Position numbers and translations under genes: made by a program. Under the pieces are notes generated by a model. It was given only the letters and a program-made list of their open reading frames with translations. It was not told the origin of the DNA and ran no database searches. Positions 11,528 to 44,897 of a stretch of 64,000 nt of DNA are shown here, piece after piece. Within the stretch, counting starts at the first letter, position 1, and each line of letters begins with the position of its first letter. The stretch comes from Candidatus Omnitrophota bacterium (lineage in GTDB: Bacteria; Omnitrophota; Omnitrophia; Omnitrophales; Aquincolibacteriaceae): contig JAYTHE010000025.1 in NCBI GenBank assembly GCA_043732705.1, positions 315-64,314 of the forward strand, read 5' to 3'.

Positions 11528-12247
<720 letters not shown>

Positions 12248-12307: not shown

Positions 12308-12967
12308 TTAGACCCCGCCGACTTCGAAACGGACAAAACGGCGAATCACGATGTTTTCACCGATGACCGCAATCGTTTCGGAAACATAATCCTGAATCGT
12401 TTGCGAATCATTCTTAATGAACTTCTGGTTCAAAAGGCAAATATCTTCGTACCGCTTCGCAAGCTTGCCTTCCAAAATCTTTTCGCGTACAGGCTCAGGT
12501 TTGTCTTTTACAGAATCAAGAAAAACCGCTTTTTCACGTTCAATCACATCAGCCGGAATTTGATCCGCGCTAACATAAAGCGGGAAAGCGGCAGCGATAT
12601 GCATTGCGATGTTGCGCGCAAACTCTTGGAATCTGTCATTCTTAGCCACGAAATCGGTTTCGCAATTAATTTCAAGCAATACACCCAATTTCCCGCCGGC
12701 GTGAATATAAGAAATAATTTGCCCTTCACGAACTTCGCGTGAAGATTTTTTCTTCGCGGAGTCGAGCCCCTTTTTACGGATAACATCTTTAGCAGCTTCA
12801 AAGTTGCCGTTCGCTTCAACAAGCGCCTTCTTAACGTCCATCATTCCCGCGCCGGTCAATTCACGGAGTTTAACGATATCTTCTTTTGTAAAATTTTCTG
12901 TGTTCACGGTCATAAACCCTCTATCGTTTTCATCGGCGTCGAGCAGAGCCAAGCTCTGCTGCGCCAA
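12308..12967 (-). CDS. tsf: Elongation factor Ts.
   Basis: EDIVKLRELTGAGMMDVKKALVEANGNFEAAKDVIRKKGL. Confidence 0.9.
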   Translation of the reverse strand: MAQQSLALLDADENDRGFMTVNTENFTKEDIVKLRELTGAGMMDVKKALVEANGNFEAAKDVIRKKGLDSAKKKSSREVREGQIISYIHAGGKLGVLLEINCETDFVAKNDRFQEFARNIAMHIAAAFPLYVSADQIPADVIEREKAVFLDSVKDKPEPVREKILEGKLAKRYEDICLLNQKFIKNDSQTIQDYVSETIAVIGENIVIRRFVRFEVGGV

Positions 12968-12977
12968 AAATATTTCG

Positions 12978-22027: not shown

Positions 22028-25000
22028 CTATGCGGAAAACGCGATCACTAATTCCGCCATCAATTGCTGCGCGAACTCTGCCATCACTCTAAATTCTTTT
22101 TCTCCGAAAAACTCTTCACGCGACTTAATTTTATCTTCGGGAACTAAAAGCGCTAATGTCGGCAGCCCGGCATTTTTTGTGCTGTAAGCCGCGCGAATAA
22201 TTTTTTTATTTCCGGGCAATTTATTCAAAAACTCGGAGTAGCCGGCAATGCGGTCATGCTGCCCAAAAAAGATAACGCGTTTGTAATTTCCGCGCAAACC
22301 ACTAAAAAAATCAACCCTGTTTTCGTCCGTAAATTGCCTTTTCAATAAGTCGAAACGTTTTTGAGCTTGGGCGCTCAAAATTTTCGTTCGATTTACGCGC
22401 AAATTAATTTTGGAATTAAGCCCAAGCAATGCCACGTACTCATTAAATTGAGCTTCCGTCATTGCTCCGAGCGTTTCATCGTCTAAAATCAAAAGTGCGG
22501 AATCACTGATTTGGGTTTGTTTGAATAAACTTAAAATCATTGCGGCATGATCTTCGGACGTGAGTGGCGCGGATGTATCGCGTAACTCCGACCTTGCGAT
22601 GCCAGACTTCTCTTGATGATTTTTATAGCGCTTGGAAAACACTTCAAAAGCCCCTGCCATTCCGCGTAAACGGAACATCTCCTTGACTTGCGCCATCACG
22701 GCTTCGCGCCGTTCCGGCGGAACCATACCCAGAACAAAATCCACCGTTTCAAAATCAAATATTTCTTCTTTTGGCGGCAATGCTTCGACTGTTACTGGGT
22801 GATTACGCGAAACCATAATCAATTTATTTGATTCCTGCGATGGGAATGTAATTGTCTTTTCAAGACCCGGGCCGTTATTAATCCTGCCGCCCTTTTGGGA
22901 TACCCAAACGGCAAACATACTGGTGTCTGATATTTCCGAACTTTGAAAAACGATTTTTTCCAATTGTGGCGCTTGTTCTAAAATTGTTAGAATATTGGCG
23001 GTCTCTACCTGCCGATTGATAATCATTTCTTTCAGATTTCTGGCGGCGCTCAAATCAAACGGTATTTCATCCCATCTGCTGCCTTCGCGAATGACAAAGC
23101 GCTCCATATTTTGAGCACCATTGATCAATTTTTGAATTGCCGAAAAATCACTGCTGTCACTCCTTGCTACATAATCAAACTCTAATTCAAAATTTCTGAC
23201 TTGCGCCATATGCGGTTCAAATTCCGCTAAAAATGCGTGATCCAAATCAGCCCAATTATCAATTCTCAGGGCTAAGCTTTGTAATTCTCGGCCGCTTTTA
23301 CCCAATTGCGGCAAAATAAATTGCGCTGAACCCTGATCGACGTCTAATTTTTCTAAAAGCGGCAAATCCACAGGATTGCGTAGCACTCTAGAACTAGAGG
23401 GTTTATCTATAACTAATTCGGTTAGAGTATTCGCAAACTCATGAATCCACATCCGGCCAAAAACATTTGTTTTCTCTGTCGTCCTTATAATCAATCGTTT
23501 AATGGGAAATCGTAAATTTTGAATGAGTTTTTCAACCACATCGGTAAAATTTCCGCCTAAATTGGTCTTATCAAATCCCAATGAATGAATCTTACGGCCT
23601 CTTACCGCATCAAATACTCCACGCAAAAATTTTGCATCGTATGATTGTTCGCCGAAATAAAGCGAATCAAGATTGGGCATAACATCTATAATTTTTTTAA
23701 TTTTATCGATTGTTTTCTGAGTTGTCTCGGTCATGTCTAGCTTAATGGCGCGCAACTGAGAATTTTTTATAGCATCTAACAGAAAAGAAACTGCTTTCGG
23801 ATTTTCTTGGGCGGAATAATCAAAATGATCCTCCAAAACCAGCCCCTCTACCATTGGAAATTGTCTTTTTAAGTCTGGAAGAAACTTAGAGGCAAGATAC
23901 ATCTGCCAAATTGTTAAAAAAACTTTTCCGTCTTCAGCTTTAAATAAAGCTACACCGCTAAGCTGCATTTTTGCTAGTTTTTCGTTGTACTCAGCCGCGA
24001 TTTCTTTGGCGGATTTTTCGGATACCGAAGCTGAAGATGCGACCGACGGCGGTGAAGCCGGTTTAGTTTCGGAAAATACTATTGTAACTTCATGCAATCC
24101 AAAGGCATTCGCAACGAGATCAATGAGTATTTTAAACTGTCTGCCATGAGAAAGAAGAGACTGTTTGAGTTGCTGTGCATCGGAGATATCATTAACTTTG
24201 AATGCGATTTTTTTCAAACCGGGTAAATAGTCATTGATATCGTCAATACGCTCAATTCCAATACGGTTGTCGATCGTAAGTTCTTTGAGCTGCCGGAGTT
24301 TATGCAGACCCAAAGATTCAATATCCGCTAAGCTATCGAGATGAATATCGACCAAGGTTATTTTTTCAGCGTTTGGCACGCTCTTAATGTTGAATCGAAA
24401 ACCTTCAAGATCATCGGGGCGTGTCTGAACCGTGAGTTCCTGGATACCCCCAAAATAAGCGTTCAAAGTTCTCAATAAACCCCGGGCATTGGCATTCGAC
24501 GACACAAACGATAATTCTAGTTTCTTCAAGCTTGGCGTAATCGATTCAAAAAATTTCTCCGTATTGTCTACCACCGTATCGCCTGCGGCGGCGTTTAGAA
24601 AACTGCTGGATAGCGAAAGAGTTTGGATGGGGCGGCCCTTGATTGCATTCAAAACAATTTGCACAAATGCAGGGCTGTAGTCTGCTCCTCCAAAATAAAG
24701 CGCCTTTGTTTGGGACAGCTTTTCTAAGACCGTAATTAAATAATCGCGTCCAATCGTATCACTTTCATAAGCACGGCCCGTAAAATCACTGTCTTCTAAA
24801 TAAATTGCATCAAAATCTTGACGCAAACCCAAGATAAGAGTTCCTGCTGAAAAATCCAGATTGTCATCAAAGACAATACCGTCAATCTTTGGAAACTCTT
24901 TAAGAAAATCCAGATTGTATCGTTGACTATGCACATATAACGCTTGTTGAGCTTTTAAAAATACTCGGCCGTCATGCGCCCAAAAAATAAAATGGTCGGC

Positions 25001-28000
25001 GGAAGAATCGGGCGATTTTGTCTTAATTGTCTTGAGCTGTGCATTGTATACCGCCGCGCGATCTTCGGCAGATAATGCGGACGTCGAATCTGAGGTCGAC
25101 GCCGATGTCGGTGCGGGCTTCGGCAGCTCCGAAGGTGCTGCTTCCCTCATGGCTTTTACATTTACGGTGATTTCATAAAGGTTGCCCTTAATTACAGCTG
25201 CGTTCCAAGCATTATTAATTTCTCCAAATTTTGCGGTGATCGCGTTTTGATCGAATCGATCGTGAATCGTTTTTGCAAATTGAAGCGCATCTAAGTCAGG
25301 CAATCGCTCGATTACTTTTACGGCAAGGTCAATATCGATTTCATCGGCAATGACAAGGTCAATATCGACTTCCTCGGCAATGACAAGCTCCCGCAGTTTT
25401 GGCGTCGCGGTAGCATTCAACATATTTTTCTCCATAAATATTCCAAGATTGTGCGCGCTCACCGTCAAGCTTTCAACTTGCACAAGGTTAGTTCCGATAG
25501 GCTTCAGCAACTCTGTATGAGCTGTCATAGATAGCGTCCTCAACTGGCCGCTAAACATATTGATAAACTGAGACTCAACCTTCATCGTCCCGCTAATGAT
25601 CAAATGCTCAAGGGGCCAGCGGGAATAGGCTATTTTTTCTAAAAAAGCACGGCTATAAGCGTCACGCCACTCATATAACTCAAGTGTCGTGATACGACTC
25701 GCGTTAAAATGAGGAATAATTTCAGATAAATCCCCGTCACCACCCACATCTTTATGGAAATAAACGGAATTTAATTGTTTAAGGTGATCAATGACCCATA
25801 CTAGTTTTTTCTTTGCGTCCGGGATGGAATCGTACTGCTCCTCTTCTTGAATTTCAATCGCCGTAAAATCAGATTTTACTTGGAGTATTTTTTGAACCTC
25901 ATCCAATCCAGAGGCACGATCAATAAAAATACCTTCCACATCTTCAAATTTATTTAAAAAATCGTAGGAAGCAACACGAGTGACCCCGCTCCCAACTTGC
26001 AAAAATACTTTGTCGTCGCGACTCATAAAAAAACTTTGCCCTGTCTCAACACCCTCCGTATTTAATAGCTTCAAGCGCTCATTGTATGCCGCCGCACGGG
26101 CTCGCGCATCCATTTGCGGCGCGGCGGCAGATTCAGAGGAAGCTCCCTCAGTTTTTCGAATCCAATACCTAACGCCAACAAGTTCGCTTTTTTTATCTTC
26201 CAGAAACACAGTCAAATCATTGGGTTGCTGGGCTGCACCCTCCGCTCTTTCAACAAAGTGCCGCTGTATCATCGAGTCATCCAGCAAACCATGGTCAATA
26301 AAAAGCATTCGCAAATGGGGTAATTGTGCGAGCGCATCAGGAACTTTGGTTAAGTCAAATCCAAACGCCAGCTGGATGCCACTTAAATTGAGACTTTTTA
26401 AATTTTTAAAACGCGCCAATAAAAACGTCATGTCGTCGGTATTAGAAAAACCTAAACCTTGCAAATTGAGGTCAATTATTTTTTCGGAATGCGGTATCGT
26501 TTCCAGGATATGACCGGCACCCATTTGACTATTTTCAAAAGACCAATGCGTCACATGCGGCGATCCAAACCTGCTGAGCTCTATATTCTCTTTGCTTTTT
26601 ACTTTTCTAAAGGAAACGCGAATCTCACCCTCCGGAAGCTTTTCAGCAGTGATGTCTCCGCTAATGTAATCCCCTGAACCTTTATATGAATCAATTTCTC
26701 TTTTAATTCTTGCTAACGCCTGGTTAACGTCTTCTTTTTGTGGGGTTGCTGGAATTCGATGCGCGGCTTCCGCCTCCGCATCAAGCTCAAGATAAACCTG
26801 CAGATCAGGACGCGATTTGAGTTTCATAAGAACGTCCGAATCAGCTCCATCAAAACGGACGCGAAAAACTTGAGCCGTATCTGTCTTATCAGCTCGTTCC
26901 AATTGCTCTTTAATTTCTTGTCTAGGGCCGAAAAGCTCCTTCAAATGAGAAAAACCACCAAGCGCAAGCGATAAATTACTCGTGACTTGCGGAGAATGAC
27001 TAATGGAAATATTTTCAAGTCCAGGGTTTCGTAAAGTTAAAAGCGCAACATCTTCAGCAATAACTGTTTTCTCATACACCTCGGCAATATCACATCCTTC
27101 AAAGTAACGAATAAATGACCAGTCCGTGACTCCGTCAGCCCCGAGATTGATTCTCAGCCACCCGTCTTCTTCATTTGCATCAAAAAGATTCTTTGGCATG
27201 AAGTCGGGCGCGGAAACAAACGCCGGTAAAATATTTTTCATTCGGCCTGCTGCGATTTCAGATTTTATTTTAGCGATAATTTGCAAGTTGCGTTCAAGGC
27301 GTTTCGCCGGAGTTAATTGATAAACCTCTTCAATCGGCTTGCCATCAAGCCAAGACACCGCCGCTGGAAGATGCGGGGCTTGGGCTCCGGCCAAGTTGTC
27401 CTTCAGCGGCGGCTTTTGCGCATTGCCGCCAAATGTAAAAAGCTTGCTGCCTGTGGAGCCTTGCGTGAAATTAATTCTTATAAATTTCTCTTCTCCCGCG
27501 CCTTCCTTGTAAGGCTTAATGTGGCCCAAATAATCCCGTTCTTCGCCCGGCAAACTTAATGACCGAAGCGGATTTTGAATAAAGGCTGCCAGGTAATTTA
27601 TCGCGACCGGCGGGAAATAATTATTGTTCGACACTCCCTGAATTTTAAGCGACTCCGTATATTTTAAATTCGCGAGCCAGCTCCATTCATGCGCTGGAAA
27701 AGCCTGATTAACCGCGTAAGTTATATTTGCAAGCTGCGGATTATTTTGAACAAAAGTCTGCATATCACGCGGCGTAATCGACTGGCTCAAAAATATTATT
27801 TGGCCAATCCCGCGCAATTGCATTAGCAGCTGCAGCTGTTCATCAGATAGTGCCTGCGATATTGCAAGTGCAAAACCAGCACGATCAACATGCTTGCCGC
27901 CGGCACCGCCACCGAGAGGAGCGGGTACTATATATTGGCTCATGATAAAAGTTGGCGAACCACCGCTTGGTTCAAGTTTCATTTGATTAATAATTCTTTG

Positions 28001-37000: not shown

Positions 37001-40000
37001 GCCGCCACCATAAATCACGAGATCACGCGGCAAACGCTTCAGTACCGCGCCCGAAGTTTGGCGCGCTAAATCCCAATTGCCCGTTTTAAGCAAAATTGAT
37101 AAATCCAGTTTATGTCCGCCTGTTCTTCTTCCCGTGTCCATCAGCCAGTTAAAAAAAGCCCGGAATAAATTCTCAAAAATTTCGGGCTCCTGATCGCGAA
37201 GTTTGGCGAGCTGAGGATCTTCAGGCGGTTTTTCAACCGTCGGCGTAATCGATACTGTTTTAAAATTCACAGCTTCCACCCGGACCAGCGCCTCATCGGG
37301 CGGTTTGATGATTTCGCCGCGCGGCCCATCAACATCCCAGGCATTTTTGCCGCCCCGCGCCTCAGGACTGTAGATGTCACCTTGCGGCTCAAATTTTTCA
37401 CCACTGTTTCTTCCGTCCAGGTTCAACAAGGACATGAAGCGACTCAACGCGTCCATTTCGCGCTGCTTCTTCTCGTTCGGCGGCGGTGACTCCGGCTCGG
37501 GCTCTCCTGCTTTTTCGCGCGCTGCCTTTTCCTCTAAAAACTGCTGATACCGGCGTGCCATCTCTTCTAATTTCTTATATCTTTGCCAGACGCGCTCATA
37601 TTTCTTAAGAGCGTTTTGAAACCTTTTATTTAATTTTTCCAGTTTTTGCTGCTCATCGGGATTTTGAAACTCCTGTCTTAAATTTTGCAGCATAACCAGC
37701 ACCGCGCCCGGAAGCCTGCGCGCGGGATTTTTAATTTGATCTTCAATTTCATCCAAACGTTTAAAAGTCACCATCCCCGGTGTTTTGAGCGCCAAAGCCA
37801 AATGCTTTTCGATCAGCGTCATCGCTTCGTCAAAATCCGCTACTTTTTCATTAAAGTTTTTCTGACGTTTAGCGCGTAAACGTTCCTGCGTTTGACGGTC
37901 GGCCTCTGCTTTCGCCTGTGCGTCCATTTCAGCGCGCATAGCAAGTGCCTGGCTGATATCCGGGACGGCTATCTGAGGTGCATTTTTTTCCTTAGGTATA
38001 TCGCCCTCCTGAACTTCGGGAACAGGATGATTTGTATTTTGAACAATGCTTTCAACCCAATCTACAATTTGAGATTGTAAAAATTGGATTTGGAGTTCGC
38101 TTAAAACCAACTCGCCGCCATTGATATCCGGATCTAATTGGGTAGTTAAGCTTTCCCATACATTCGATTGAGGCATTCCGACATATGAATCACCCTTCAA
38201 ATGTTCAAGCAAAGCAGGAAAAGGATTTTCACCCAGCAGCGAGAAAAAGTCGCCGTCACCATTCTGCGCTCCGGTAAGCCCCATTAAAGCGGCCTGAAAT
38301 TTTTCTAAATCCGCGATCGTAACCTGGCCAAACAAATAGGCCATAAGCGAGTAACGGTAAAGTTTGCGCGGTGTCAGCGTATTATTTGCATTTTCAATCC
38401 ACTCAAAAAGTACTGCGACCGCGTCCTGGTTCAAAGCTCCTTCGGGAGTGCGAATGTTTTGAATCACATGCGCCAATTGAATCGCGGAGTTGGGCGGGCG
38501 GCGCGGTTCCCGGCTAAAAATCCGTCCGGCTAAAAATTCAACCCAGGCCAATTGCACATCATCAAACAAATCCGCGGCAAGTCCTTTATTGGCATCCGAC
38601 GACCAGGAGCGTTCATTGAAAAGAGAATCCATGATTTGCATAAATAATTTTTCGGATTGTTCCCCCTGCACACGGAAATATTCACCGCGCGTAAAAGCAT
38701 GCATACCCAAAGTCATACTGATAAAAAACCAGTCCCTTCCTGTCGCAATATCCGCCGTGCTAATTACAAGCGCATTGTCCTTATGCTCAAAATAAGAATG
38801 TTGATTGGTTCGATTGATTTTGACGTGAATTTTATTAATGACAGGCGGACTTAAGACATCCACGATTTTTTGATAAATCGCGACTTGCTTCACCGAAGCT
38901 GTGTCAGGCTGATTTTCGGTAAGCTGCGACACGGCATAAAGCCGCTCAAAATCAGCGGAATGCTCCGCAAGTTGCCAGCGTTCGTATGTCGGCCCATAAA
39001 CAAAACGCGCGGCATCCGCCCAACCAGCTTGCGGATGCTTGACTAAATATTGAATGGCTCGGGTCAGTTCACGAATGGTAGGAATAAACTCTTCGTTTTG
39101 GACTTGAGCGGTAATCCAAGCCTGAAAATGCGCAATGCTGGCCACTCTAGTATCATCTTCCGCCAGCCCTGCGGTTTGCGCCAATTTTGCGGTGATTAAA
39201 AGCAAACTCGGCTCATCATAAGGCCGCGCCATAAACACCGATGAGCGGCTCATCAAAGGCGATGAGACTTTATTGCGGCCTGAAAAATGCGCGCCATTTA
39301 AAGTTCCGATGAAAAGAAAACCCGGATGCGGCTTTTTCCCGCCGGCCAAAATATCATTCAACTTCCCTTCCAGCACGCCCGATTTCAAAAAATTCATTTC
39401 GCGCAAAGCAATGATGGAACCATCCGCTTTCGCAGTTTGAATCGTCGCTTCAAGTTCATCATCACTCATCGAACCGTTCAAATAATGAATGGCCTGGGAA
39501 GCGCTCGAAACCGGGTTGCGTTTTTGCCATTCCGCTAAAAAGTTTTCGAGTACAAAATCTTTGCCCCAACCCGAAGGACCCAGAACAAGCGATGACACCT
39601 TGCCGGGCTCAACAAATTGGCCCTCCGCGCGCGCTTGACGCAAGCGCATCAAATCCCATAAATACGCAAGATAGGAAAGCGTTTGGCCGGTCAACGCTAC
39701 GTCATTCAAAGTCGCATAGTCTGCAAATTGCGCGCGCGTTGCTTCCAGCCGCTTCGCTTCAAGCGCCTTAAAATCAAGCAGCGGCCTTCCCTGTTCGTCA
39801 TTGCCCATTTTTTTCTGAAATATGAACTGTACCGCGCTTTGTTCGACTTCGCTGAAACGGTCGCGGTAAACAAGCCAGATTTGATAAATCAATTCGCTTT
39901 TTTTGTCCTGGTCCGATGCGCTGAGGCCGAATGCTTTGACGCGATTGCTGGCTTCTTGAATTTCGCGGATCGAAAACTCATATTGCGGGCCGATTAATTT

Positions 40001-43000
40001 CGCGATTTCATGCATATTCATCAAAATCGGAATGATTTCTTCGGCATCCTTCACGCCCGCTAAATATCGCTCGGCCTGCGCTTCATAAAAAGCCCGGTCA
40101 AAGTCATCAAAAACAACCGTGACACCTCTTTCCTGCGCGACGCGCAAGACATTGCGGTCTTCCGTTGTTTCATCATTGCCGGTCATCACAATGGGTTTGT
40201 TTTTGCCGGCATTATCTAATAAAAAATAATGAAAATCAGCCGGAGCGGTATTGGCTTCATCCCAAAGCAAAATACCGCGTAGGCTTTTACGCCAATTGCC
40301 CACAAAGCCGCGCGGGCCGGTACCGGTCAATTCACTTTCTTCGACATTAGAACCCGTTGTAAAAGGCCCGAATCTTTCTTCCGCGGAATAGCCAAGCGCT
40401 TGCGCTAAATCGGGCAACAATTTACTTTTGCCCGTACCGGGCGCGCCCTGCAAAAAAACAATCGGAACCGCCTGCGTAATTTTTTTCACCAGTGCCAGAC
40501 GTTCATCGGCTGTTAAATAATCAAGTTCAAGTTCATCGTCGATGAGAGGAACTGTTAGATTGCCAACACCGGCGTGATTTAAAGTGTCTCTTAAAAAACT
40601 TCGAAAACCCGTGCGGTCATTCTTGTATTTTAAAACCACGGCCTCTTTAATGACGGCAAGCGGCTGCTCGGACAAATCTCCTTTCCAAGACTTTTCGGCG
40701 AGCTCATCCCTTAAGGCCTCGAGCGTGTCCCAGCTCAAAGTATTCACCATTTGCCAATAAAATTTATGCCAATCTTCCGCAGACCGAATGTGACTTAGAA
40801 TTTTGTTCAGCCTTCGCCCGGCAATCGCCGAGTTCATGCTTCCGGACACACCACGTTTGGCTTCCTGCGCGCCCAACATGATTTTGGCCTGAACCTGAAT
40901 GTAATTCGCGATGACCGCGTCGCGGCGATAATGCACGCCCCAAGTATGCTGAAAAGCCTCGAAAGGATTTTGTAACTCTTGCAGCAACGCGAAATAAACC
41001 TTTAGCCGCGCATAACTCCAATCAAATTCGCTCGGAAACAGTTCGTTGGTCAAGCCGCGATTTGACGGCAAAGGCAGATTTTTAAAGAGGTCGCGCAATT
41101 GCTTGAGCTGATTCCATTTTTCATTCAGCTTGCCGCTTGCCGCAAGAGTTGGAAATTCTTTTTTTAACTGCTCGAAATAAAGCGCGTCTTGATCTTCAGA
41201 TTTTGCGATGCGCGTGGAATATTCGTAGCGCGACCGGCCTTCATTTAAACCAGTCGCCGTTAAAATCAACTTCCCTTTGAATTCGGAGAGATTCTTTCGT
41301 TCGCCATTCACAATCAAATAAGGCACGTCGGAGAAAAGCGACTCAAGTTCTTTCATCAAACGCGGACTGCGTTCGACGCCCTCAAGAATAACTGTTTCAC
41401 CCGCCTCAAGCGCGGCCAATACTTTTTGTTTCACGTTGCGAATTTCAAAATATTTGTCATGTACGCTCATGAGCTCGCCCGTATCAATCATCGCGCTCGC
41501 GCTTGATCCTAAGCTCATATGTTGGACCGTTACTTTTTGGGCGGGATTTGCGGCACGGATTCTCTCGGTCAGAAAAGGCAAATCATCAGCCTCGAGCAAA
41601 TGCACACTGCCTGCTTCCATCTCCGGTAAATCCGAAGTTGCCTCTTCCGGTTCCGCAACAGCCGCGGGCTTCATCGCAACGAAATGCGAATAAACGAACG
41701 GCACTTCCACTCCCGCGGCAACTTCCACTTGAACGCCTGGCGTATGCATAATCGCGTTCCAAATACCTTCATCTTCGAGATTTTCCGTGATTCTGATTTT
41801 GACATTCTTTTGCGCCAAAATCCCGGGCAAAGGCCGCAAACGGTTTGTGCGGGCATCAATCTCAACTCGTTGAAAGAGAATATCTTTGGTAACTTGATTG
41901 ATCATCCAAACGTCACCTTCCAACGCATGTCCCAAATGAATGGTTTTCGGCTCGGATAAACGTGAATAATCTTTTTGCTGAAAGACAATTTCAAAATCAG
42001 GCGGCACCTGAATCACTTGGCCGTTCACAATCAAGGTGCGGTAAACCAAAATTTGATCGATAAAATAGCGGAAATCCGGGTCGTTGCGCGGCCCCTGAAT
42101 TACAAGCCGTTTCTTGCCGTTCATCGCTTTCACGAGCGGGCCTTCCTGATACTCCCATTCACCCTGACCATTAATGCCGATATGCTCAACTAAAATATCC
42201 TGAAAATCGGACCTCTTCATAAGATCAATCACCGCGTCATTTGGTCCCAACACGGCATCTTCACGAAGCTGATTGTGGTCCTGCATGAGCCGGTCGAACT
42301 CTGAATGAAAAGCTCCCGTATCAAGTCCGGTGCTTTGATCATCCGTTTGCAGCGCGCGCGAATAAACTGTGATCGAAAAATGGTCCGCTTCTTTCGGATG
42401 AATTCCGACAAAGACCTGCAAACGTGGATCCGCGGGCGTGGCCGAGCTTCCTAAAAACGGTTTAGCATCGAAGAGCGCGTTAAACTGCTCCAAGGCCCGC
42501 GCGTCCGCGCCTTCGGTATCAAAAAATAAAATTCCGCCCCCCCTCACTACGCGTTCAATGAGCCCCATTTGTGGGACACGCGTTCCGTCCGGCTGAACCG
42601 TAGCCAAATATTGAACCTCAATCCGGTGACGGTCATCACGGAGACGGACACGCAGATATGGGACATCGCGGTTTTCTTTTGACGACCGCTGCTTGGCGAG
42701 GTTATGCAATTCAAAATCCAGCGCGTCCATCGCTTCGGTTTTGTCAATGACGCGCGGCTCGCCTTCAATATCCCGCATTTCGGAACGCACGGTTTCGACA
42801 TCTACAGAAAGCGATGAATCTTTTTTTGTATAATTCCAAACAATATGACCGCCGCCCTTTGTAATTGAGGCTACAATTGATGAGGTGTAATCACTGTCGA
42901 ATTGCCCACGTAGTTCATGAGTGGACACTTTTATGAATCGTGAAATCATTGCAAAGGCAACTACGGCTGACAACATACTGAAAACGCCGGCCGGGAGAAT

Positions 43001-44695
43001 ATATTCCGCTTCATTCAAAGTGAAAGCGATACTCATGCCCTGCTCAGGAGATTCTGCTTTGATTGGCTTGACAATAATTTGAGTGATGGGAAGCTGAGGA
43101 TTTTTCTTTAGAAGTGCCCTTACTTTATCACCAACGGTTTCAATATCCGTCATAGCTAGCCGCATTTCGGAGCGATTAAAAACCATAGGGGTCAGTCCCA
43201 CTGCGGAGGACAGACCCCCGTCGCGCATTTTGGAGCGCCGCGTTTCGCCGCGCAAGGCCGGCAAAACTTGGGTTAAGAAATCACGAACTTCGTTGCGTGG
43301 AAAATCAAAGATGGGCTCGGGACGCGAACCACTATGCGCAAAACCCAGTGGTTCACCAGGCAGGCGACGCGCGGTCATCAGCGTTTCATAAATTTTTTGA
43401 TGTTTAGGGGAAACATTTTTAATCGAAGGCGTTACGACTGAATAGCTATATCCAAGCCGGCGCAGTAATTCACAAATTCGTTTACGGTGAAAGCCGCCAT
43501 AAACCAATACTTGCGGCGCGGAAGACGGGTTAGATTCTAAGATCCGAGCAAGCTTGGCATCGCGTTTTTCGGCGGTGAGATAAAACTCCATGGCTGGGTC
43601 GATCAGCTTTTCCCAAGCCGCGAGATACACAACCGGCTTTTTTAAAACTGAAGCCGCATCCGCGGCCGCGCGTTGTGAAAAACCGGAAAGAGCAATGCTT
43701 GCCGGTTGAGCCGCAGGCTCAGAGGCAAAAACATAACGGCTCACCCATTCAAACTCTTCGGGCGCAGCTTTGAGCGCGGCGACTTTTTTAATCGATTGCA
43801 ATAATTGGTAATTCGTAAAAATGCGGCGGTCGGTTTCCGAAGCCAGCTGCCGTGCTACAAAGTCACGCTCGCTACTTTTAATTTCCGCAAATAAAACCGC
43901 GGGTTGAATGTTACGTTTTACGTTTGATTGCGGCGACTCAAGCAGGCTTAATAAAGCTGCGAATTGCGGATAGGATTCGAAAGGATTTTTACCCGGAAAT
44001 GCGGCACGCATTTTTTTCGCGAGCCGCAAACAATACTGATCAAACGAAAGTTGTCCATCCTGTGCGCGCTGCCATTCCTTCAGCCACTCGCTCACAGCGC
44101 GCGGATAATTTATATTCATGATCTTTTGATATTCCGCGTCAATTTGCCGCAGCTCATCCTGAATGACCGGTTCTATTTTTTTGCTTTCGCCGTAACGGCG
44201 GATATTTTCATGATGTAATTTAAAATTATCCGCGCCGATTAAATCAAAGGCTTGAGGATTCAATACATGCAAAAATTCGGCGCCGCCCAACCGCAAATGA
44301 TCCATGAGGTAAAATGCGGCTTTCTTTTTCAACTGTTTATCTCTGATGAAGCCAAAGTAATCTTCGGTCGGAACTTGTCCTTCATAACCTTCTTCATAAA
44401 CAGTTTTTACGCCGGACTTGCGAATGAGCTGCGAAATAATTCTAGCGGTATTGAGCTGTGCTTCAAGTGAATCATGCGCGTCTTGAATAAAAATAATCTT
44501 TTTCGCCGCATCCGCTGATTGATACGTCTCTTCCACTCGTCCCCATGGGGCTAAATTAGGCAGTATTGAACCGGAATACAGTCTTGAAGATTGTGAGGGG
44601 AAAGAAGTTGTTGGACAGACCATAAGAAAGACAAGGCCGAGAGCAACCCCTCTTCTTGTAAGCAGACTCCATGACTGATTTTTGTAGGTAAACAT
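22028..44695 (-). CDS. Giant 7,555-aa secreted or membrane-anchored multidomain protein: signal peptide, TraB/TIKI-like domain, multi-AAA_5 (dynein/midasin-like) ATPase core, coiled coil, and a long array of repeated modules.
   Basis: A single uninterrupted 22,668-nt ORF with an ATG at 44693-44695. N-terminus MFTYKNQSWSLLTRRGVALGLVFLMVCPTTSF. Internal motifs are listed in the sub-features below. Confidence 0.8.
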   Translation of the reverse strand: MFTYKNQSWSLLTRRGVALGLVFLMVCPTTSFPSQSSRLYSGSILPNLAPWGRVEETYQSADAAKKIIFIQDAHDSLEAQLNTARIISQLIRKSGVKTVYEEGYEGQVPTEDYFGFIRDKQLKKKAAFYLMDHLRLGGAEFLHVLNPQAFDLIGADNFKLHHENIRRYGESKKIEPVIQDELRQIDAEYQKIMNINYPRAVSEWLKEWQRAQDGQLSFDQYCLRLAKKMRAAFPGKNPFESYPQFAALLSLLESPQSNVKRNIQPAVLFAEIKSSERDFVARQLASETDRRIFTNYQLLQSIKKVAALKAAPEEFEWVSRYVFASEPAAQPASIALSGFSQRAAADAASVLKKPVVYLAAWEKLIDPAMEFYLTAEKRDAKLARILESNPSSAPQVLVYGGFHRKRICELLRRLGYSYSVVTPSIKNVSPKHQKIYETLMTARRLPGEPLGFAHSGSRPEPIFDFPRNEVRDFLTQVLPALRGETRRSKMRDGGLSSAVGLTPMVFNRSEMRLAMTDIETVGDKVRALLKKNPQLPITQIIVKPIKAESPEQGMSIAFTLNEAEYILPAGVFSMLSAVVAFAMISRFIKVSTHELRGQFDSDYTSSIVASITKGGGHIVWNYTKKDSSLSVDVETVRSEMRDIEGEPRVIDKTEAMDALDFELHNLAKQRSSKENRDVPYLRVRLRDDRHRIEVQYLATVQPDGTRVPQMGLIERVVRGGGILFFDTEGADARALEQFNALFDAKPFLGSSATPADPRLQVFVGIHPKEADHFSITVYSRALQTDDQSTGLDTGAFHSEFDRLMQDHNQLREDAVLGPNDAVIDLMKRSDFQDILVEHIGINGQGEWEYQEGPLVKAMNGKKRLVIQGPRNDPDFRYFIDQILVYRTLIVNGQVIQVPPDFEIVFQQKDYSRLSEPKTIHLGHALEGDVWMINQVTKDILFQRVEIDARTNRLRPLPGILAQKNVKIRITENLEDEGIWNAIMHTPGVQVEVAAGVEVPFVYSHFVAMKPAAVAEPEEATSDLPEMEAGSVHLLEADDLPFLTERIRAANPAQKVTVQHMSLGSSASAMIDTGELMSVHDKYFEIRNVKQKVLAALEAGETVILEGVERSPRLMKELESLFSDVPYLIVNGERKNLSEFKGKLILTATGLNEGRSRYEYSTRIAKSEDQDALYFEQLKKEFPTLAASGKLNEKWNQLKQLRDLFKNLPLPSNRGLTNELFPSEFDWSYARLKVYFALLQELQNPFEAFQHTWGVHYRRDAVIANYIQVQAKIMLGAQEAKRGVSGSMNSAIAGRRLNKILSHIRSAEDWHKFYWQMVNTLSWDTLEALRDELAEKSWKGDLSEQPLAVIKEAVVLKYKNDRTGFRSFLRDTLNHAGVGNLTVPLIDDELELDYLTADERLALVKKITQAVPIVFLQGAPGTGKSKLLPDLAQALGYSAEERFGPFTTGSNVEESELTGTGPRGFVGNWRKSLRGILLWDEANTAPADFHYFLLDNAGKNKPIVMTGNDETTEDRNVLRVAQERGVTVVFDDFDRAFYEAQAERYLAGVKDAEEIIPILMNMHEIAKLIGPQYEFSIREIQEASNRVKAFGLSASDQDKKSELIYQIWLVYRDRFSEVEQSAVQFIFQKKMGNDEQGRPLLDFKALEAKRLEATRAQFADYATLNDVALTGQTLSYLAYLWDLMRLRQARAEGQFVEPGKVSSLVLGPSGWGKDFVLENFLAEWQKRNPVSSASQAIHYLNGSMSDDELEATIQTAKADGSIIALREMNFLKSGVLEGKLNDILAGGKKPHPGFLFIGTLNGAHFSGRNKVSSPLMSRSSVFMARPYDEPSLLLITAKLAQTAGLAEDDTRVASIAHFQAWITAQVQNEEFIPTIRELTRAIQYLVKHPQAGWADAARFVYGPTYERWQLAEHSADFERLYAVSQLTENQPDTASVKQVAIYQKIVDVLSPPVINKIHVKINRTNQHSYFEHKDNALVISTADIATGRDWFFISMTLGMHAFTRGEYFRVQGEQSEKLFMQIMDSLFNERSWSSDANKGLAADLFDDVQLAWVEFLAGRIFSREPRRPPNSAIQLAHVIQNIRTPEGALNQDAVAVLFEWIENANNTLTPRKLYRYSLMAYLFGQVTIADLEKFQAALMGLTGAQNGDGDFFSLLGENPFPALLEHLKGDSYVGMPQSNVWESLTTQLDPDINGGELVLSELQIQFLQSQIVDWVESIVQNTNHPVPEVQEGDIPKEKNAPQIAVPDISQALAMRAEMDAQAKAEADRQTQERLRAKRQKNFNEKVADFDEAMTLIEKHLALALKTPGMVTFKRLDEIEDQIKNPARRLPGAVLVMLQNLRQEFQNPDEQQKLEKLNKRFQNALKKYERVWQRYKKLEEMARRYQQFLEEKAAREKAGEPEPESPPPNEKKQREMDALSRFMSLLNLDGRNSGEKFEPQGDIYSPEARGGKNAWDVDGPRGEIIKPPDEALVRVEAVNFKTVSITPTVEKPPEDPQLAKLRDQEPEIFENLFRAFFNWLMDTGRRTGGHKLDLSILLKTGNWDLARQTSGAVLKRLPRDLVIYGGGKLTALQADLFRFLFERGYSVRVLMNSGQISPRILSLQELMAALGMAGQNATLIDRDETARNLAREFNLKSPWLATLDDIQTLLFSGYAYAAVHAAIQHQKMDEEVKPEAAAAAVVEGVSPKYKIKAKPFSQIGLTFLVQRFIHERGGAVKQYIVNSFALAGAKLKTIIIVKDGTDFSKYPTDDFVEYWTESDALLPENIARVRTYATNQFNQVYELLADFSENKSIEDLKQRQRAVIDQLLHLESIQKYPFAPSIVSIDHDEVVLDLTSYEKHGMDVVNEILKNIHGFDHVLLPRFIGHARFPSPSDPMSQAPYPPSPKNYSFRPAAVSEKGYLVTVYSQGELGTKEVNYSNVVYEPDNAKIEAVREHAASLNTDLKALKGGEYFSINYQDGFIYCRVNVEYPGRLEFVDWISLIMLVRGVAVLEFENADNFPVEMWSFLADQNPDLFILEPPFPEKEGFWPDFGKLFPNLRGYSARHLTPAEFNALPLERLEMLTLAHFDATAVKSEQVAVALQKMPRLRKIVYEHAIEYGLPDILTLPPSVEKIFIIPGKKALPINVSDLAVLNGRKGLVVQIGNNRLSEDATMGEDPSGNGFDLIYFADGQEKIFKNQKVPFDDEAVPAPPGAKHGIEQRLQNAIKQFDALTSDDAKMRGLLGKHFLKIDQGEIVLDLTAAGIHAGSLAKQVLPSLTDIDHLIAPRNQPITGNKLDYHFRVTEPSEHGYKVTIQNGEGKPDNVYYQVQYAASDPATQEPADKTVLKDKLSKLGFKREAQEETVYQKDGLWHFYFVNKLSPEQWTQLMPHIKNFYSFDATNFGLPKAELGVLAQNNPELVVLEWWPLKDTATNMPLPNFPNLRSYLSLTLDSQDASRLHRSQVKKINIFELENSILAVFNGRKTIVELDHLEEDVLIVNAPLDAPGLDLYFAPAPAAPKEWRINVLVLDPAHPLADPNLYYQLDASILFEYNNRILQEAGISQQRINRYSAVTENQGTILGVEIGQPLSAEETAALMLLRGVSSFEAHGQSLPPADVMAQFHRNNPHVNRSSSPAADASPKTSQAADNSPQARLETISRNLRKLMADGVLPWTEEFIPFGVKLKDGDRVTVSLSNMTLKNPQHWIQIVRAVEGADEIYAAAGDITNEAVSELPAGVKVLILNHTRQFTDWQIIRRFHQLEELHIAFVDAGGPASMQARAELESVRDDEQGFKIDFDGSLLMRKYRIKAAAPSTVNEPAQARLEKVQRALQSLMDAGVLPWKKTDLKDSVFLKDGRVNVSLFMGSPENQQEWIQIAQATAGADEISVSRTNITNEAVNALPTELKVLSIENAPNFTDWQSIQRFRKLEKLFIRFPPDGKGAESQAQALAVFQTVTDGGFGFEIFNNGNQWPEKHRVKETAAAPKAQLPLDPQKPLADPNDYYGLDIIKLWRYNQKILAANGIPEAKINTKLSDDGHLFLHISSGLTKLDRNVLPQLRGIGEVYINSPEVSDYDLDQLTKNNPQIRQFDYAADLSPTTHVDGWQWLENLTNVVHLSLPPLANVGVEVLKFISSRKLESLSLFEVQEKCKPYLLRTVANEPGAFHFVHFMSNRAGEFTGQENEGFAVLAHLQAKPAPKETQPHVSQVLDPEAAYDLSFADRLAYNKTVIDRLNALATTSGASLSESFEGKLVLSVYGNPTLAQIELLASFRGIESIHMDAKDMQGIESLVTNNPRLYHLVFHLHESDSANLTRPWLASLKHLERLNILGMSKGRALFNLGANLKYLSQLPKLRTVELPGNKKDYPALKSAPAGADNVVEVSFGVGDETMSVVLSDTASPPASPEPSQAPDPEAAYEMSSQELLAWNNGVRNKILELNGTGNSAEVPEFFSSSPRTILLRGSWSAEQAALLKDFRGIMSVHIELNKTNALAEFAKNNPRIIVVDCLLSVIGFGQDLGLFNHFKNLRDLTIRSNQPDADNFADYLPSLADLPLKQLVLPGLFKDYERDLQPSNDDDAIKITFSVGHREGKFKIIAKKTQSEPSQAPDPEAAYTMDKTALMEWNHDVRDKILALNGKRKSDFTRVKVDLVGGKVYLEVEGVLSLGQVALLAEFRGVHAVNVRSDVAGFDEFAVNNPRIAIILHDVSKAVPGSKNLFWFDKLRHVEEIGLEKKSRSLSLDAGSIKAFASMGLKKLTVPLTQSECLPYLQRSDAVDAVLITFSDGKTEKYKIHSLEDARLEEDRRLTERELKELNGRAFFADNRKIMFDPATVTVNFVGFKIRHPEDWIFVLRALPAARRFAFDSSSEAFDYFEPANEGEPGAVLVVEFSQGDPFLKWMKLKPAIAPQEAKLEAPQPGSPAAIQKIVKEFLAMNIFYGDIHVSGIFARASVSFQDAEIRDPSRWRWALEQLAGARQFIFTDTQLEKMGEVEPLFFENADVADPGSIHIAMVHGKGVNSKTSPLGWKKFKPATPKPSNQFTAPDPVKAYQMSAAEITAYNAAIIHQLNVISERDRQVFVTSGNNLSIILHESAKAISDGQLELLKQLRGLELLSIKNTSAHALPHETMTQVARNNPRIESFMYVAPKTATNFKDFEIIQTLSWVRELRNVTDFGLIQYGAILEDVFDWIKDMPLEKFHSNLEPQNDTVAQYIEPAGDGEGFEYISDTIRGRYKLKSAASKQPAKQNGKPVLDTAKPLADPNAYYEYSTVERSDYNANILTGNNQGGHLLISYGGDGIIMLTVGRDATPSEIKKMMPLFRGIDGVLFESPQDSESLAVFAKNNPGMRILEYVPRPVNVRSWPEMPWLAEWKELQTVMFGQDVPLGNLRFIQSPRLTGLSLFEMPTVAELGPYAEKSEQGHPGAFELEYRNEGGFRGSYSGGHFVLKHLSPQSPTPAAKPPIDSVTKPEDFYAYSQQELYQYNMHVMSSSMASEMSLIFTNDHGPGAKGLKLFITSIGPREKAALPFLRGISTIFADDSLKKGSEGERFLLANNPRVKKVMRTDDEESAKEEKQPSPPTAQLDPEQAYKMDTGELEAYNQRIINQMKLEPSGGSPTFIMSQYIVPAPLGGGAGGKHVDRAGFALAISQALSDEQLQLLMQLRGIGQIIFLSQSITPRDMQTFVQNNPQLANITYAVNQAFPAHEWSWLANLKYTESLKIQGVSNNNYFPPVAINYLAAFIQNPLRSLSLPGEERDYLGHIKPYKEGAGEEKFIRINFTQGSTGSKLFTFGGNAQKPPLKDNLAGAQAPHLPAAVSWLDGKPIEEVYQLTPAKRLERNLQIIAKIKSEIAAGRMKNILPAFVSAPDFMPKNLFDANEEDGWLRINLGADGVTDWSFIRYFEGCDIAEVYEKTVIAEDVALLTLRNPGLENISISHSPQVTSNLSLALGGFSHLKELFGPRQEIKEQLERADKTDTAQVFRVRFDGADSDVLMKLKSRPDLQVYLELDAEAEAAHRIPATPQKEDVNQALARIKREIDSYKGSGDYISGDITAEKLPEGEIRVSFRKVKSKENIELSRFGSPHVTHWSFENSQMGAGHILETIPHSEKIIDLNLQGLGFSNTDDMTFLLARFKNLKSLNLSGIQLAFGFDLTKVPDALAQLPHLRMLFIDHGLLDDSMIQRHFVERAEGAAQQPNDLTVFLEDKKSELVGVRYWIRKTEGASSESAAAPQMDARARAAAYNERLKLLNTEGVETGQSFFMSRDDKVFLQVGSGVTRVASYDFLNKFEDVEGIFIDRASGLDEVQKILQVKSDFTAIEIQEEEQYDSIPDAKKKLVWVIDHLKQLNSVYFHKDVGGDGDLSEIIPHFNASRITTLELYEWRDAYSRAFLEKIAYSRWPLEHLIISGTMKVESQFINMFSGQLRTLSMTAHTELLKPIGTNLVQVESLTVSAHNLGIFMEKNMLNATATPKLRELVIAEEVDIDLVIADEIDIDLAVKVIERLPDLDALQFAKTIHDRFDQNAITAKFGEINNAWNAAVIKGNLYEITVNVKAMREAAPSELPKPAPTSASTSDSTSALSAEDRAAVYNAQLKTIKTKSPDSSADHFIFWAHDGRVFLKAQQALYVHSQRYNLDFLKEFPKIDGIVFDDNLDFSAGTLILGLRQDFDAIYLEDSDFTGRAYESDTIGRDYLITVLEKLSQTKALYFGGADYSPAFVQIVLNAIKGRPIQTLSLSSSFLNAAAGDTVVDNTEKFFESITPSLKKLELSFVSSNANARGLLRTLNAYFGGIQELTVQTRPDDLEGFRFNIKSVPNAEKITLVDIHLDSLADIESLGLHKLRQLKELTIDNRIGIERIDDINDYLPGLKKIAFKVNDISDAQQLKQSLLSHGRQFKILIDLVANAFGLHEVTIVFSETKPASPPSVASSASVSEKSAKEIAAEYNEKLAKMQLSGVALFKAEDGKVFLTIWQMYLASKFLPDLKRQFPMVEGLVLEDHFDYSAQENPKAVSFLLDAIKNSQLRAIKLDMTETTQKTIDKIKKIIDVMPNLDSLYFGEQSYDAKFLRGVFDAVRGRKIHSLGFDKTNLGGNFTDVVEKLIQNLRFPIKRLIIRTTEKTNVFGRMWIHEFANTLTELVIDKPSSSRVLRNPVDLPLLEKLDVDQGSAQFILPQLGKSGRELQSLALRIDNWADLDHAFLAEFEPHMAQVRNFELEFDYVARSDSSDFSAIQKLINGAQNMERFVIREGSRWDEIPFDLSAARNLKEMIINRQVETANILTILEQAPQLEKIVFQSSEISDTSMFAVWVSQKGGRINNGPGLEKTITFPSQESNKLIMVSRNHPVTVEALPPKEEIFDFETVDFVLGMVPPERREAVMAQVKEMFRLRGMAGAFEVFSKRYKNHQEKSGIARSELRDTSAPLTSEDHAAMILSLFKQTQISDSALLILDDETLGAMTEAQFNEYVALLGLNSKINLRVNRTKILSAQAQKRFDLLKRQFTDENRVDFFSGLRGNYKRVIFFGQHDRIAGYSEFLNKLPGNKKIIRAAYSTKNAGLPTLALLVPEDKIKSREEFFGEKEFRVMAEFAQQLMAELVIAFSA
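25321..25390 (-). repeat. In-frame 30-nt tandem DNA repeat (about 2.5 copies) within the giant ORF.
   Basis: cggcaatgacaaggtcaatatcgacttcct repeats, encoding ELVIAEEVDIDLVIADEIDIDLAV. Confidence 0.8.
32800..33840 (-). repeat. Two tandem LRR-like protein repeats of about 165 aa in the giant ORF (about 495-nt units).
   Basis: PQARLETISRNLRKLMADGVLPWTEEF...ITNEAVSELPAGVKVLILNHTRQFTDWQIIRRFHQLEELHI versus AQARLEKVQRALQSLMDAGVLPWKKTD...ITNEAVNALPTELKVLSIENAPNFTDWQSIQRFRKLEKLFI. Confidence 0.75.
37400..37950 (-). other. Charged K/E/R-rich predicted coiled-coil linker in the giant protein.
   Basis: AKAEADRQTQERLRAKRQKNF...KLEKLNKRFQNALKKYERVWQRYKKLEEMARRYQQFLEEKAAREKAGEPEPESPPPNEKKQREM. Confidence 0.55.
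38995..43195 (-). other. AAA+ ATPase region of the giant protein with several AAA_5 (MoxR/dynein/midasin-type) modules. Approximate limits.
   Basis: Walker A VFLQGAPGTGKSKLL (DNA 40424-40447). Walker B GILLWDEANTA. Second Walker A LVLGPSGWGKDFV (DNA 39559-39585). AAA_5 sensor-like GFLFIGTLNGAHFSGRNKVSSPLMSRSSVF. Two degenerate modules (GGGILFFDTEGADARALEQFNALFD; GETVILEGVERSPRLMKELESLF). Confidence 0.6.
43375..44518 (-). other. N-terminal domain of the giant protein with tentative TraB/GumN/TIKI-like features. Approximate limits.
   Basis: IIFIQDAHDSLEAQLN...VKTVYEEG and later VLVYGGFHRKRICELLRRLGY resemble the two conserved His-containing boxes of the TraB/TIKI fold. Weak call. Confidence 0.3.
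44597..44695 (-). other. Signal peptide or N-terminal TM anchor of the giant protein.
   Basis: Positively charged n-region (TRRG) followed by a hydrophobic core VALGLVFLMVC. Confidence 0.6.
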
Positions 44696-44897
44696 AAATT
44701 TTCTAAAATAAATTTAACCTCAATCCTTCGTATAAGCAAAATTATGTTATATTTTACTATATAATGCTATATATTAACTTCGCAGAACGTCCTTTATTTT
44801 AACAAAACTTTATAAATATGTTTTTTATGAAATATTGCAAGCTCTCTCTTACACTACTTATCTAAATATTTGTCTGTTATAATGCGCTTCGTTTTTC
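44696..44897. promoter_or_regulatory. AT-rich divergent intergenic region between the giant gene (-) and sdhC (+). Extended -10 for the sdh operon at 44875-44883.
   Basis: tgTtataat (TGn-TATAAT) about 15 nt upstream of the sdhC ATG. About 200 nt of more than 70% AT upstream of the giant gene. Confidence 0.4.

Follow-up and report, generated by a model that had tools for sequence, protein, structure and literature searches.

How is a bacterial protein of several thousand amino acids (aa) built, and what might such a protein do? This question is raised by a gene on contig JAYTHE010000025.1 of a Candidatus Omnitrophota bacterium (assembly GCA_043732705.1), of which we analyzed a stretch of 64,000 nucleotides (nt), referred to here as the window. 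Between 22028 and 44695 on the minus strand, one uninterrupted open reading frame (ORF) of 22,668 nt runs from an ATG start to a single terminal stop codon and encodes a protein of 7,555 aa, termed the giant in the following. This ORF was found exactly as claimed in the original prediction, a model's earlier reading of the same DNA, and no second ORF of comparable size is present in the window. ORFs of more than 20 kb are common in Omnitrophota (Seymour et al. 2023, PMC10066038), and the giant falls into this size class. AAA_5 is among the top-20 domains of the giant ORFs of this phylum (giant-gene preprint), and adhesion roles have been proposed for them in published work including PMC10066038. 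The functions of giant genes are described as obscure, it being undetermined whether their products act whole or cut (PMC10066038; West-Roberts et al.), and missing information about cleavage points has been named as a limitation (West-Roberts et al.).

Giant genes are thus a recognized yet unexplained hallmark of the Omnitrophota, and the locus described here shows that at least one large subfamily of them follows a simple plan: a Sec signal peptide and an N-terminal cap domain (N-cap), modules linked by the motif RSE[LVM]R, a C-terminal cap domain (C-cap) of ~190 aa ending in …[S/A]A-COOH, and almost no cysteine. On balance, we favor the explanation that the giant is a complete member of this Omnitrophota-type capped family, carrying a cargo of AAA_5-like modules and leucine-rich repeats (LRRs) between its caps, and that it would combine scaffold-coupled remodeling with processing at the RSExR motifs.

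Terminal caps, linker motif and cysteine content

All features of the giant lie on the minus strand. Its first 33 residues (44597..44695) look like a Sec-type signal peptide when read from the sequence, with basic residues (K5, R14, R15) followed by a hydrophobic stretch of 12 residues, GVALGLVFLMVC (hydropathy 1.52), and by PTTSFPS; of 116 family members, 106 have a hydrophobic segment at the N-terminus. The N-cap follows at aa ~50-460 (43316..44548) and shares 31-38% identity with the N-terminal parts of most proteins in a set of 118 large ones (1,300-3,900 aa). Among the N-cap relatives with an organism label, 17 of 19 are from Omnitrophota. Their other domains vary (NUDIX, methyltransferases, GNAT, HAD, PPDK, kinases, sigma-70 regions), and in most relatives the cargo modules are single enzymes of 200-600 aa.

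An alignment of 17 N-cap sequences revealed the invariant residues Q71-D72-A73-H74-D75-S76, E102, E105, E140, H143, H161, R378, G400-G401-F402-H403, and H432. The catalytic set of active TIKI enzymes consists of 2 His and 2 Glu, as in RRSP (E3900, H3902, E3930, H4030) and Bcr135 (H85, E113) (PMC6254334). In the N-cap, a corresponding set is found in D72-x-H74, E102 (H+28), and H403 within GGFH, with the first acid being Asp instead of Glu; these D-x-H…E…H positions are kept even in a clade of just 22-28% identity, and the domain has the alpha/beta fold, centered on a parallel beta-sheet, that superfamily members share. Searching PDB sequences with the N-cap profile, as well as PDB with aa 1-2450 of the giant using phmmer, gave no match. 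From its sequence pattern, the N-cap looks like a catalytically competent domain of the TIKI/TraB/Ere class (TIKI/TraB/Ere/ChaN superfamily), with D72, H74, E102, and H403 as candidate catalytic residues of a hydrolase-like site.

At the opposite end, 92 of 119 relatives terminate in …[S/A]A-COOH after a conserved domain of ~190 aa. A hidden Markov model (HMM) built from these 92 relatives matches aa 7346-7555 of the giant (22031..22660) with 48.9 bits (E=3.6e-17), and the giant accordingly closes with …ELVIAFSA-COOH. The C-cap has no match in Pfam or NCBIfam, and a profile search of PDB gave only chance-level matches to Rab5.

The modules between the caps are separated by a short motif, RSE[LMIVAF]R, which occurs 406 times in 120 family proteins compared to 2.5±1.4 times in shuffled sequences. 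It is found in none of the other ORFs of the window and is absent from 147 relatives of the AAA core outside the capped family. The motif sits in linkers rich in small residues and is followed by acidic residues; its first copy typically lies ~125 aa past the N-cap, its last copy ~200 aa before the C-terminus, and the median spacing is 340 aa. In three relatives that were scanned with Pfam, all six enzyme domains fall within single inter-motif segments. An interpretation of RSExR as a nucleotide-level element, e.g., a recombination site, was rejected, as R, S, and E are encoded by freely varying codons; selection therefore acts on the peptide.

Three RSExR motifs split the giant into four parts: the signal peptide with the N-cap (aa 1-507), a 129-aa transmembrane (TM) module between two RSEMR motifs (aa 508-512, 43160..43174; aa 637-641, 42773..42787), a unit of 6,731 aa, and the C-cap, which contains RSELR at aa 7368-7372 (22580-22594). 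The cargo unit of 6,731 aa begins at the second RSEMR, which in the closest relative of the giant, P0119, is matched in the alignment by AHRSELRV where the core begins; P0119 also has the longest inter-motif segment found among the relatives (2,551 aa).

Cysteine is almost excluded from the giant (8 of 7,555 residues, 0.106%, compared to 1.38% in the 33 other ORFs of the window; binomial P=7e-35). The median for the capped family is 0.10%, while the Legionella-type relatives of the AAA core described below have 1.3%, which makes the depletion a property of the family rather than of the fold. Taken together, the giant shows every feature of the capped family, i.e., the signal peptide with the N-cap, RSE[LVM]R at module boundaries, a C-cap ending in [S/A]A, and ~0.1% cysteine. 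Neither the N-cap, the C-cap, the RSExR motif, the cysteine exclusion nor the combination of AAA_5 and LRRs is mentioned in the giant-gene preprints or by Seymour et al., and the caps, the RSE[LVM]R linker, and the cysteine exclusion appear to be undescribed family-wide features. The plan allows complete genes to be recognized in fragmented assemblies and giants to be split into modules for structure prediction, and it makes the processing of Omnitrophota giants directly testable.

The closest relative, P0119 (MSR77457.1, EXS63_04440), is a hypothetical protein of 3,222 aa from the Omnitrophota member Ca. Taenariivivens baikalensis (contig SICL01000013.1). Both proteins are collinear, with identities of 33% in the N-cap, 38.5% between aa 631-2673 of the giant and aa 481-2475 of P0119, and 24.5% over the last ~190 aa. 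Like the giant, P0119 has a signal peptide, an N-cap, RSELR, a five-module AAA_5 core including GPSGWGKD and REMN, LRRs, and a C-cap (…FASSA); it differs in lacking a TM module after the N-cap and in the length of its LRR region (~540 aa compared to ~4,500 aa).

The AAA_5 core and the LRR-like scaffold

The cargo unit opens with a core in which five AAA_5-like modules of the MoxR/midasin/dynein class are recognizable (M1 to M5), one of them predicted to be catalytically competent. Scanning the giant in tiles with Pfam yielded one AAA_5 (PF07728) match above the cut-off (35.2 bits compared to 22; aa ~1413-1440), which aligns with profile positions 2-30 only, whereas the equivalent modules of the relatives P0001, P0124, and P0126 match positions 2-129 of 139 with E-values between 2e-15 and 4e-19. 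This match belongs to M4, an intact AAA_5 module with lid (aa 1401-1690; 39626..40495), which has Walker A at G1417-S1424 (GAPGTGKS) and Walker B at D1479/E1480. The giant contains only two P-loops, the one of M4 and GPSGWGKD (aa 1706-1713), and a single canonical Walker B, ILLWDE at 1475-1480. In M5, the second P-loop module (aa 1691-1836; 39188..39625), ALREMN replaces the hhDEIN pattern. REMN or SEMN stands at this position in the giant, P0119, P0001, and other capped relatives, compared to DEIN in the Legionella-type relatives, whose M5 matches Pfam AAA_5 over positions 2-139. The core of the giant therefore has one competent site and one conserved degenerate site.

The remaining three modules, M1-M3 (aa 655-1165; 41201..42733), lack a Walker A motif. 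They keep the AAA_5 succession of a beta-hairpin, Walker B, and the next strand, with pseudo-Walker-B segments at aa ~719-745, 861-905, and 1099-1135. Profile comparison with hhalign connected M4 with M5 (98.3%, E=1e-14) and M2 with M3 (94.6%, E=7e-8), with weak links between M1 and M2 or M3 (E~6e-4) and between M3 and M5 (E=3e-4). The only PDB matches of this region are to NorQ, an AAA_5 protein of the MoxR class (E=1.5e-4 for a profile of the whole core, 0.4-0.8 for one of M1-M3), to which M1 and M2 align in overlapping stretches (residues 53-106 and 75-150); the hhalign and NorQ matches together lend the three modules moderate support. A helical linker region (aa 1166-1400; 40496..41200), for which secondary structure was taken from a low-confidence model and which is conserved in the core alignment, connects M3 with M4. 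Behind M5 lie a post-core region without recognized domain (aa 1837-2239; 37979..39187), which is conserved with P0119 and other capped relatives, and a mixed-charge helical region (aa 2240-2480; 37256..37978) with 11.6% E, 9.5% K, and 8.7% R and a hydrophobic periodicity of 3.4-3.7 residues.

Of 1.84 billion representatives, the core profile matched 2,832 at E<1e-3 and 1,469 at E<1e-30. All five aligned relatives, with identities as low as 19%, strictly retain Walker A, Walker B, and the AAA_5 motifs downstream of them in M4, which argues for a selected nucleotide site. The core has no NCBIfam match. No vWA or metal-ion-dependent adhesion site (MIDAS) domain was matched by Pfam on any tile of the giant, and the layout typical of MoxR (~300 aa, a single AAA_5, an adjacent vWA gene) is not seen at this locus, with no vWA gene among the scanned neighbors. 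A role as a defense system was considered and rejected; the one PADLOC match was weak and of a generic P-loop kind (mad8, E=5e-4).

At least 20 proteins of 3,000-7,700 aa are among the core relatives, several of them with an N-cap-like domain or an …[S/Q/N/A]A ending, and one relative reaches 7,722 aa. A distant clade (P0124-P0133, including P0125 with 7,722 aa, as well as P0153, P0196, P0215, P0221, P0250, and others) was noted for its signal peptide and N-cap-like D-x-H…E…H pattern; it has the same AAA core (GPSGRGKD, SEMN), endings in …QA, NA, SA, or AA, no RSExR, and in many members a conserved FW[A/Q/E]ERR just past the signal peptide.

The largest part of the giant is an LRR-like scaffold (aa ~2800-7345; 22661..36298). 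Self-BLAST detected diverged repeats from aa ~2820 to ~7260 with 22-46% identity, and iterated HMM searches resolved a module of ~169 aa in 13 copies between aa 3326 and 7040, i.e., over ~11 kb. Further duplicated units are 3634-3788/3802-3956 (46% identity), 2821-2960/3226-3265, and 6761-6849/7041-7300. In each ~169-aa module, four to five turns of the L-x-x-L type come after a short helical cap (DPEAAY…YN). When a profile of ten module copies was compared with PDB, the top 17 matches were all LRR proteins (best E=0.002), including variable lymphocyte receptors, internalin-derived repebodies, ANP32A, and ZYG11B. In P0119, Pfam recognizes LRR_4 with 62 bits, as well as LRR_8, between the core and the C-terminal domain. 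The PDB profile matches, together with the clear LRRs of P0119 and P0126, justify the term LRR-like, although not canonical LRR. As judged from these sequence comparisons, the giant probably reached 7,555 aa, compared to 3,222 aa in its ortholog P0119, through old duplications of LRR modules.

Two groups of proteins invite comparison. The first comprises Legionella proteins of 2,000-2,700 aa annotated as "AAA family ATPase" or "AAA domain (dynein-related subfamily)" (e.g., WP_040535094.1, STX50350.1), which share the same ~1,150-aa core, covered by the profile over its full length (E<1e-175), and, including those of L. drancourtii and L. busanensis, also carry LRRs. They are 21-23% identical and differ in having the core in the C-terminal half and the LRRs at the N-terminus, a canonical second Walker B (DEIN), and normal cysteine content, and in lacking N-cap, RSExR, and C-cap; they are likewise uncharacterized. 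The locus thereby connects LRR scaffolds of the unrelated, host-associated Omnitrophota and Legionella with a single-chain AAA_5 core that has more than 1,400 representatives, and the distribution of this core points to a widespread, unstudied class of bacterial ATPases.

The second group consists of midasin/Rea1 and RNF213, which, like the core of the giant, have several AAA_5-class modules per chain, most of them degenerate. Dynein is likewise a multi-AAA chain with mostly degenerate modules, and in such motors long helical or repeat regions bear the substrate-binding part. The giant has five recognizable modules compared to the six-module ring of midasin, with the AlphaFold2 (AF2) model being too poor for counting. 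It has neither MIDAS/vWA nor a D/E-rich region (its charged region is mixed E/K/R and its C-terminus is the C-cap), microtubule-binding stalk, or E3 module, and, unlike these proteins, it possesses a signal peptide, a TIKI-like N-cap, an LRR array, and a C-cap.

The anatomy given in the original prediction was largely borne out by these analyses. Basic residues, a 12-residue hydrophobic core, and small residues support the predicted N-terminal signal peptide or anchor, the retained D-x-H…E…H set supports the TraB/TIKI-like domain, and the Pfam tile scan, hhalign, and NorQ matches support the multi-module AAA_5 core; the diverged LRR-like repeats in an 11 kb array were recovered by self-BLAST, iterated HMMs, and PDB profile matches, and the tile scan agreed with the absence of vWA/MIDAS. 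Corrections concern the Walker motifs, for which two intact A/B sets had been claimed and only one was found (the second reads GPSGWGKD and REMN), and the C-terminus, which indeed lacks vWA and known adhesin domains but is not featureless, as it forms the conserved C-cap; in addition, a TM-like segment at aa 566-584 had been missed. The comparison with midasin holds for a possible working mode and not for membership, given the lack of MIDAS and of a demonstrated hexameric ring. Finally, the architecture had been called undescribed in bacteria, whereas the same plan exists in MSR77457.1 and dozens of metagenomic relatives, the AAA core is combined with LRRs in Legionella, and ORFs of this size are common in Omnitrophota (PMC10066038). 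The architecture is not unique, yet all such proteins are uncharacterized.

Possible mechanism, processing and topology

We infer from this arrangement that the giant performs ATP-driven remodeling, binds ligands through its LRRs, has peptidase activity in its N-cap, is cleaved at RSExR, and is exported. In the mechanism envisaged here, the LRR array would serve as a long multivalent protein-binding scaffold, and the AAA_5 core would use the ATP that it binds and hydrolyzes at one site (K1423, D1479/E1480) for conformational work on a ligand held by the scaffold. By the precedent of the mostly degenerate midasin, dynein, and RNF213, a core with one site may convert ATP turnover into movement. 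The N-cap would act as a hydrolase, probably a peptidase. RRSP, a MARTX effector, is a TIKI-family endopeptidase with a 2His/2Glu set (PMC6254334), and the class of the N-cap thus includes sequence-specific endopeptidases (TIKI, RRSP), which makes RSExR at the module boundaries a candidate substrate. The motifs would be the best candidate cut points, yielding N-cap, TM module, cargo, and C-cap.

Several observations weigh against this interpretation. The giant is known from sequence alone. Its N-cap has no match to Pfam (TraB, TIKI, Erythro_esteras, Cofac_haem_bdg) or NCBIfam at E<=0.1 or 0.01, and the best TIKI/Ere match in Foldseek is not significant (E=0.07). The Pfam LRR matches of the giant are all below threshold (E 0.0035-0.8), and the assignment of M1-M3 is based on marginal statistics (E 1e-4 to 0.8). 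Moreover, the AF2 model of aa 640-1839, calculated from a four-sequence alignment, is poor (predicted local distance difference test score 54, predicted template modeling score 0.27), leaving a closed AAA ring without structural support. RSExR is missing from the diverged clade, which has an N-cap-like domain, the AAA core, and a similar ending at the C-terminus, so the N-cap does not necessarily come with the motif. Lastly, the topology is contradictory: a signal peptide together with one TM segment predicts a cytoplasmic cargo, which would suit an ATPase, and this conflicts with the cargo being as cysteine-poor as the rest of the family and with an ortholog that has no TM segment.

Among the alternatives, a different role of RSExR has to be taken most seriously, although we hold it to be somewhat doubtful. 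The motif might not be a cleavage site but a docking or modification motif, e.g., for a kinase or chaperone, or simply a conserved linker, in which case the chain would work intact with all its 7,555 aa. The case for cleavage is drawn from sequence patterns, the motif is unlike the known substrate sites of TIKI or RRSP, and the diverged clade keeps the catalytic residues of the N-cap while lacking the motif. On the other hand, RSExR stands strictly at module boundaries, in small-residue linkers that continue into acidic residues, a conserved domain of a peptidase class is found in the same chains, and the overall pattern resembles the processing of polyproteins or of MARTX-type proteins.

The second alternative concerns the compartment. 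The TM-like segment at aa 566-584 (ILPAGVFSMLSAVVAFAMI; 42944..43000), which sits in the 129-aa module bounded by the two RSEMR motifs, is the hydrophobicity maximum of the whole protein (Kyte-Doolittle 2.22). It lies behind the N-cap, is followed by basic residues, and has a counterpart at this position in ~29 of 116 relatives, about a quarter. It might act as a stop-transfer sequence, such that only the N-cap, as a periplasmic sensor or enzyme, is exported, while residues 590-7555 remain tethered at the cytoplasmic face of the membrane as a scaffold or remodeler. The TM segment and the need for ATP favor a cytoplasmic location, as cytoplasmic cofactors are required by AAA+ ATPases and by those enzymes of the relatives that depend on SAM, ATP, or NDP-sugars, and a 2026 preprint interprets many long Omnitrophota proteins as membrane-anchored. 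However, the part behind the TM segment has only 5 cysteines in ~6,970 aa, which is unexpected for a cytoplasmic protein, and P0119 and P0001 have the signal peptide and no TM segment, which would put their AAA and LRR unit on the opposite side of the membrane. As suggested by the signal peptide and by the exclusion of cysteine throughout the family, its members would act beyond the producer's cytoplasm, either at the producer's surface or inside a host or prey cell. We regard a membrane-tethered cytoplasmic machine as rather unlikely and, judging from these sequence features, lean toward an action of the giant outside the producer's cytoplasm.

A further-reaching version of the processing hypothesis, which we put forward only as a speculation, is that capped giants are polyproteins in which the N-cap or a partner protease cuts RSE[LVM]R and frees cysteine-free modules outside the producer, possibly in a host or prey cell. 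If so, the module released from the giant would be a 6,731-aa AAA_5-LRR machine, the family would be a Sec-dependent counterpart of the MARTX multi-effector toxins, and RSExR would provide the cleavage map so far lacking for giant bacterial proteins. The likeness to MARTX toxins is one of analogy only: they too are giant secreted proteins with constant ends around variable modules, which are released by an internal protease. In contrast to them, the giant has neither glycine-rich RTX-type repeats at its ends nor an inositol-phosphate-activated cysteine protease domain on any of its Pfam tiles, and it has a Sec signal peptide instead of a type I layout, its processing being hypothetical. The described Omnitrophota giants (Archaeovorin, dockerin-type, multi-enzyme, and tandem-repeat classes) resemble the present family in having ORFs above 20 kb, commonly with a signal peptide and TM segments, and in an enzyme repertoire as in the relatives of the giant (methyltransferase, GNAT, HAD, NUDIX, PPDK).

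It seems improbable that the giant is merely a passive surface coat or adhesin, in which the LRR array mediates adhesion to host or prey and the AAA_5 core is a vestigial hub without ATP turnover. In line with such a view are the degeneration of four out of five AAA-like modules and the adhesion roles published for Omnitrophota giant ORFs, and both the signal peptide and the scarcity of cysteine would suit a protein located outside the cell. Nonetheless, the strict conservation of the M4 motifs, which holds down to 19% identity in the aligned relatives and extends across more than 1,400 core representatives, speaks for a selected nucleotide site, and no known adhesin domain was found in the Pfam tile scan.

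Integrity of the gene and its genomic neighborhood

The ORF carries the family N-cap at its start (HMM E=5e-158) and the family C-cap at its end, which argues for a complete gene and against a fusion of two. Its GC content of 41-49% is in line with that of the flanks. The longest near-identical DNA repeat inside the ORF measures 38 nt, so that collapse or misjoining of the assembly through repeats is unlikely, and this also marks the repeats seen at the protein level as old and diverged. NCBI and Logan sources both record the identical product of 7,555 aa, on a 65-kb contig, and we infer that the ORF is assembled correctly. That it represents an assembly chimera or a decaying pseudogene kept open by chance is highly improbable: while the contig is metagenome-derived and known as assembled sequence, 7,555 stop-free codons are impossible by chance, long DNA repeats that could mediate misassembly are missing, both caps are the correct ones, the catalytic motifs are conserved, and the protein is collinear with P0119 over ~2,500 aa.

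The sole tandem repeat of the ORF is a 30-nt unit in 2.1 copies (94% identical; 25324-25387), which encodes …DIDLVIADEIDIDL… and represents the only recent duplication in the gene. The reading frame is open for just 6 codons upstream of the ATG, so the start is well bounded; in the region 5' of it (44696-44760, minus strand), the only GAGG-like sequence lies ~22-26 nt upstream, which is far for a Shine-Dalgarno sequence. A 177-aa ORF on the opposite strand (25980-26513, plus strand) is located wholly inside the giant gene and is most likely a chance open frame.

Downstream of the giant gene, on the same strand, lies rpsB-tsf-pyrH-frr, at a distance of 8.3 kb compared to 5.3 kb in the case of P0119, with proteins that are 57-74% identical between both genomes (10952-13760, minus strand, in the window; 24992-28057 in L004, the P0119 locus). 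The shared position upstream of these genes identifies the giant and P0119 as positional orthologs and indicates that the window stems from an Omnitrophota-type genome related to that of Ca. Taenariivivens baikalensis, in agreement with the organism labels of the N-cap relatives. A locus search with a single core protein had given no confirmed locus, and one with a two-sequence core alignment only the P0119 contig. Between the giant gene and rpsB, the window contains a sugar-modification set and a convergent GT87 gene, whereas unrelated genes are found at the P0119 locus, and P0001 has yet another gene neighborhood. For this lack of conservation, we rejected the idea that the glycan and GT87 genes are functionally linked to the giant, and the suggestion in the original prediction that these genes might decorate the giant is not supported, as the ortholog occupies the same position without them.

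The P0119 locus differs further in having another giant gene of the capped family directly upstream (L004 1-9858; also L002 241-8391). Its product has a length of at least 3,881 aa, shows seven RSExR motifs over the portion that was read, and ends with …RTSQSA; genes of the capped family can therefore sit in tandem. In the window, a 233-aa ORF without Pfam match (44898-45599, plus strand) is divergent from the giant gene across an AT-rich spacer of 200 bp. There is no rRNA gene within the window. Farther away, a gene for a PIF1-like helicase (52912-54150, minus strand) and one for an NlpC/P60 cell-wall hydrolase with SH3b (54339-55724, minus strand) are encoded beside a suf Fe-S assembly operon (57736-63682); of the two, the wall hydrolase might be relevant if the bacterium lives as a predator or epibiont.

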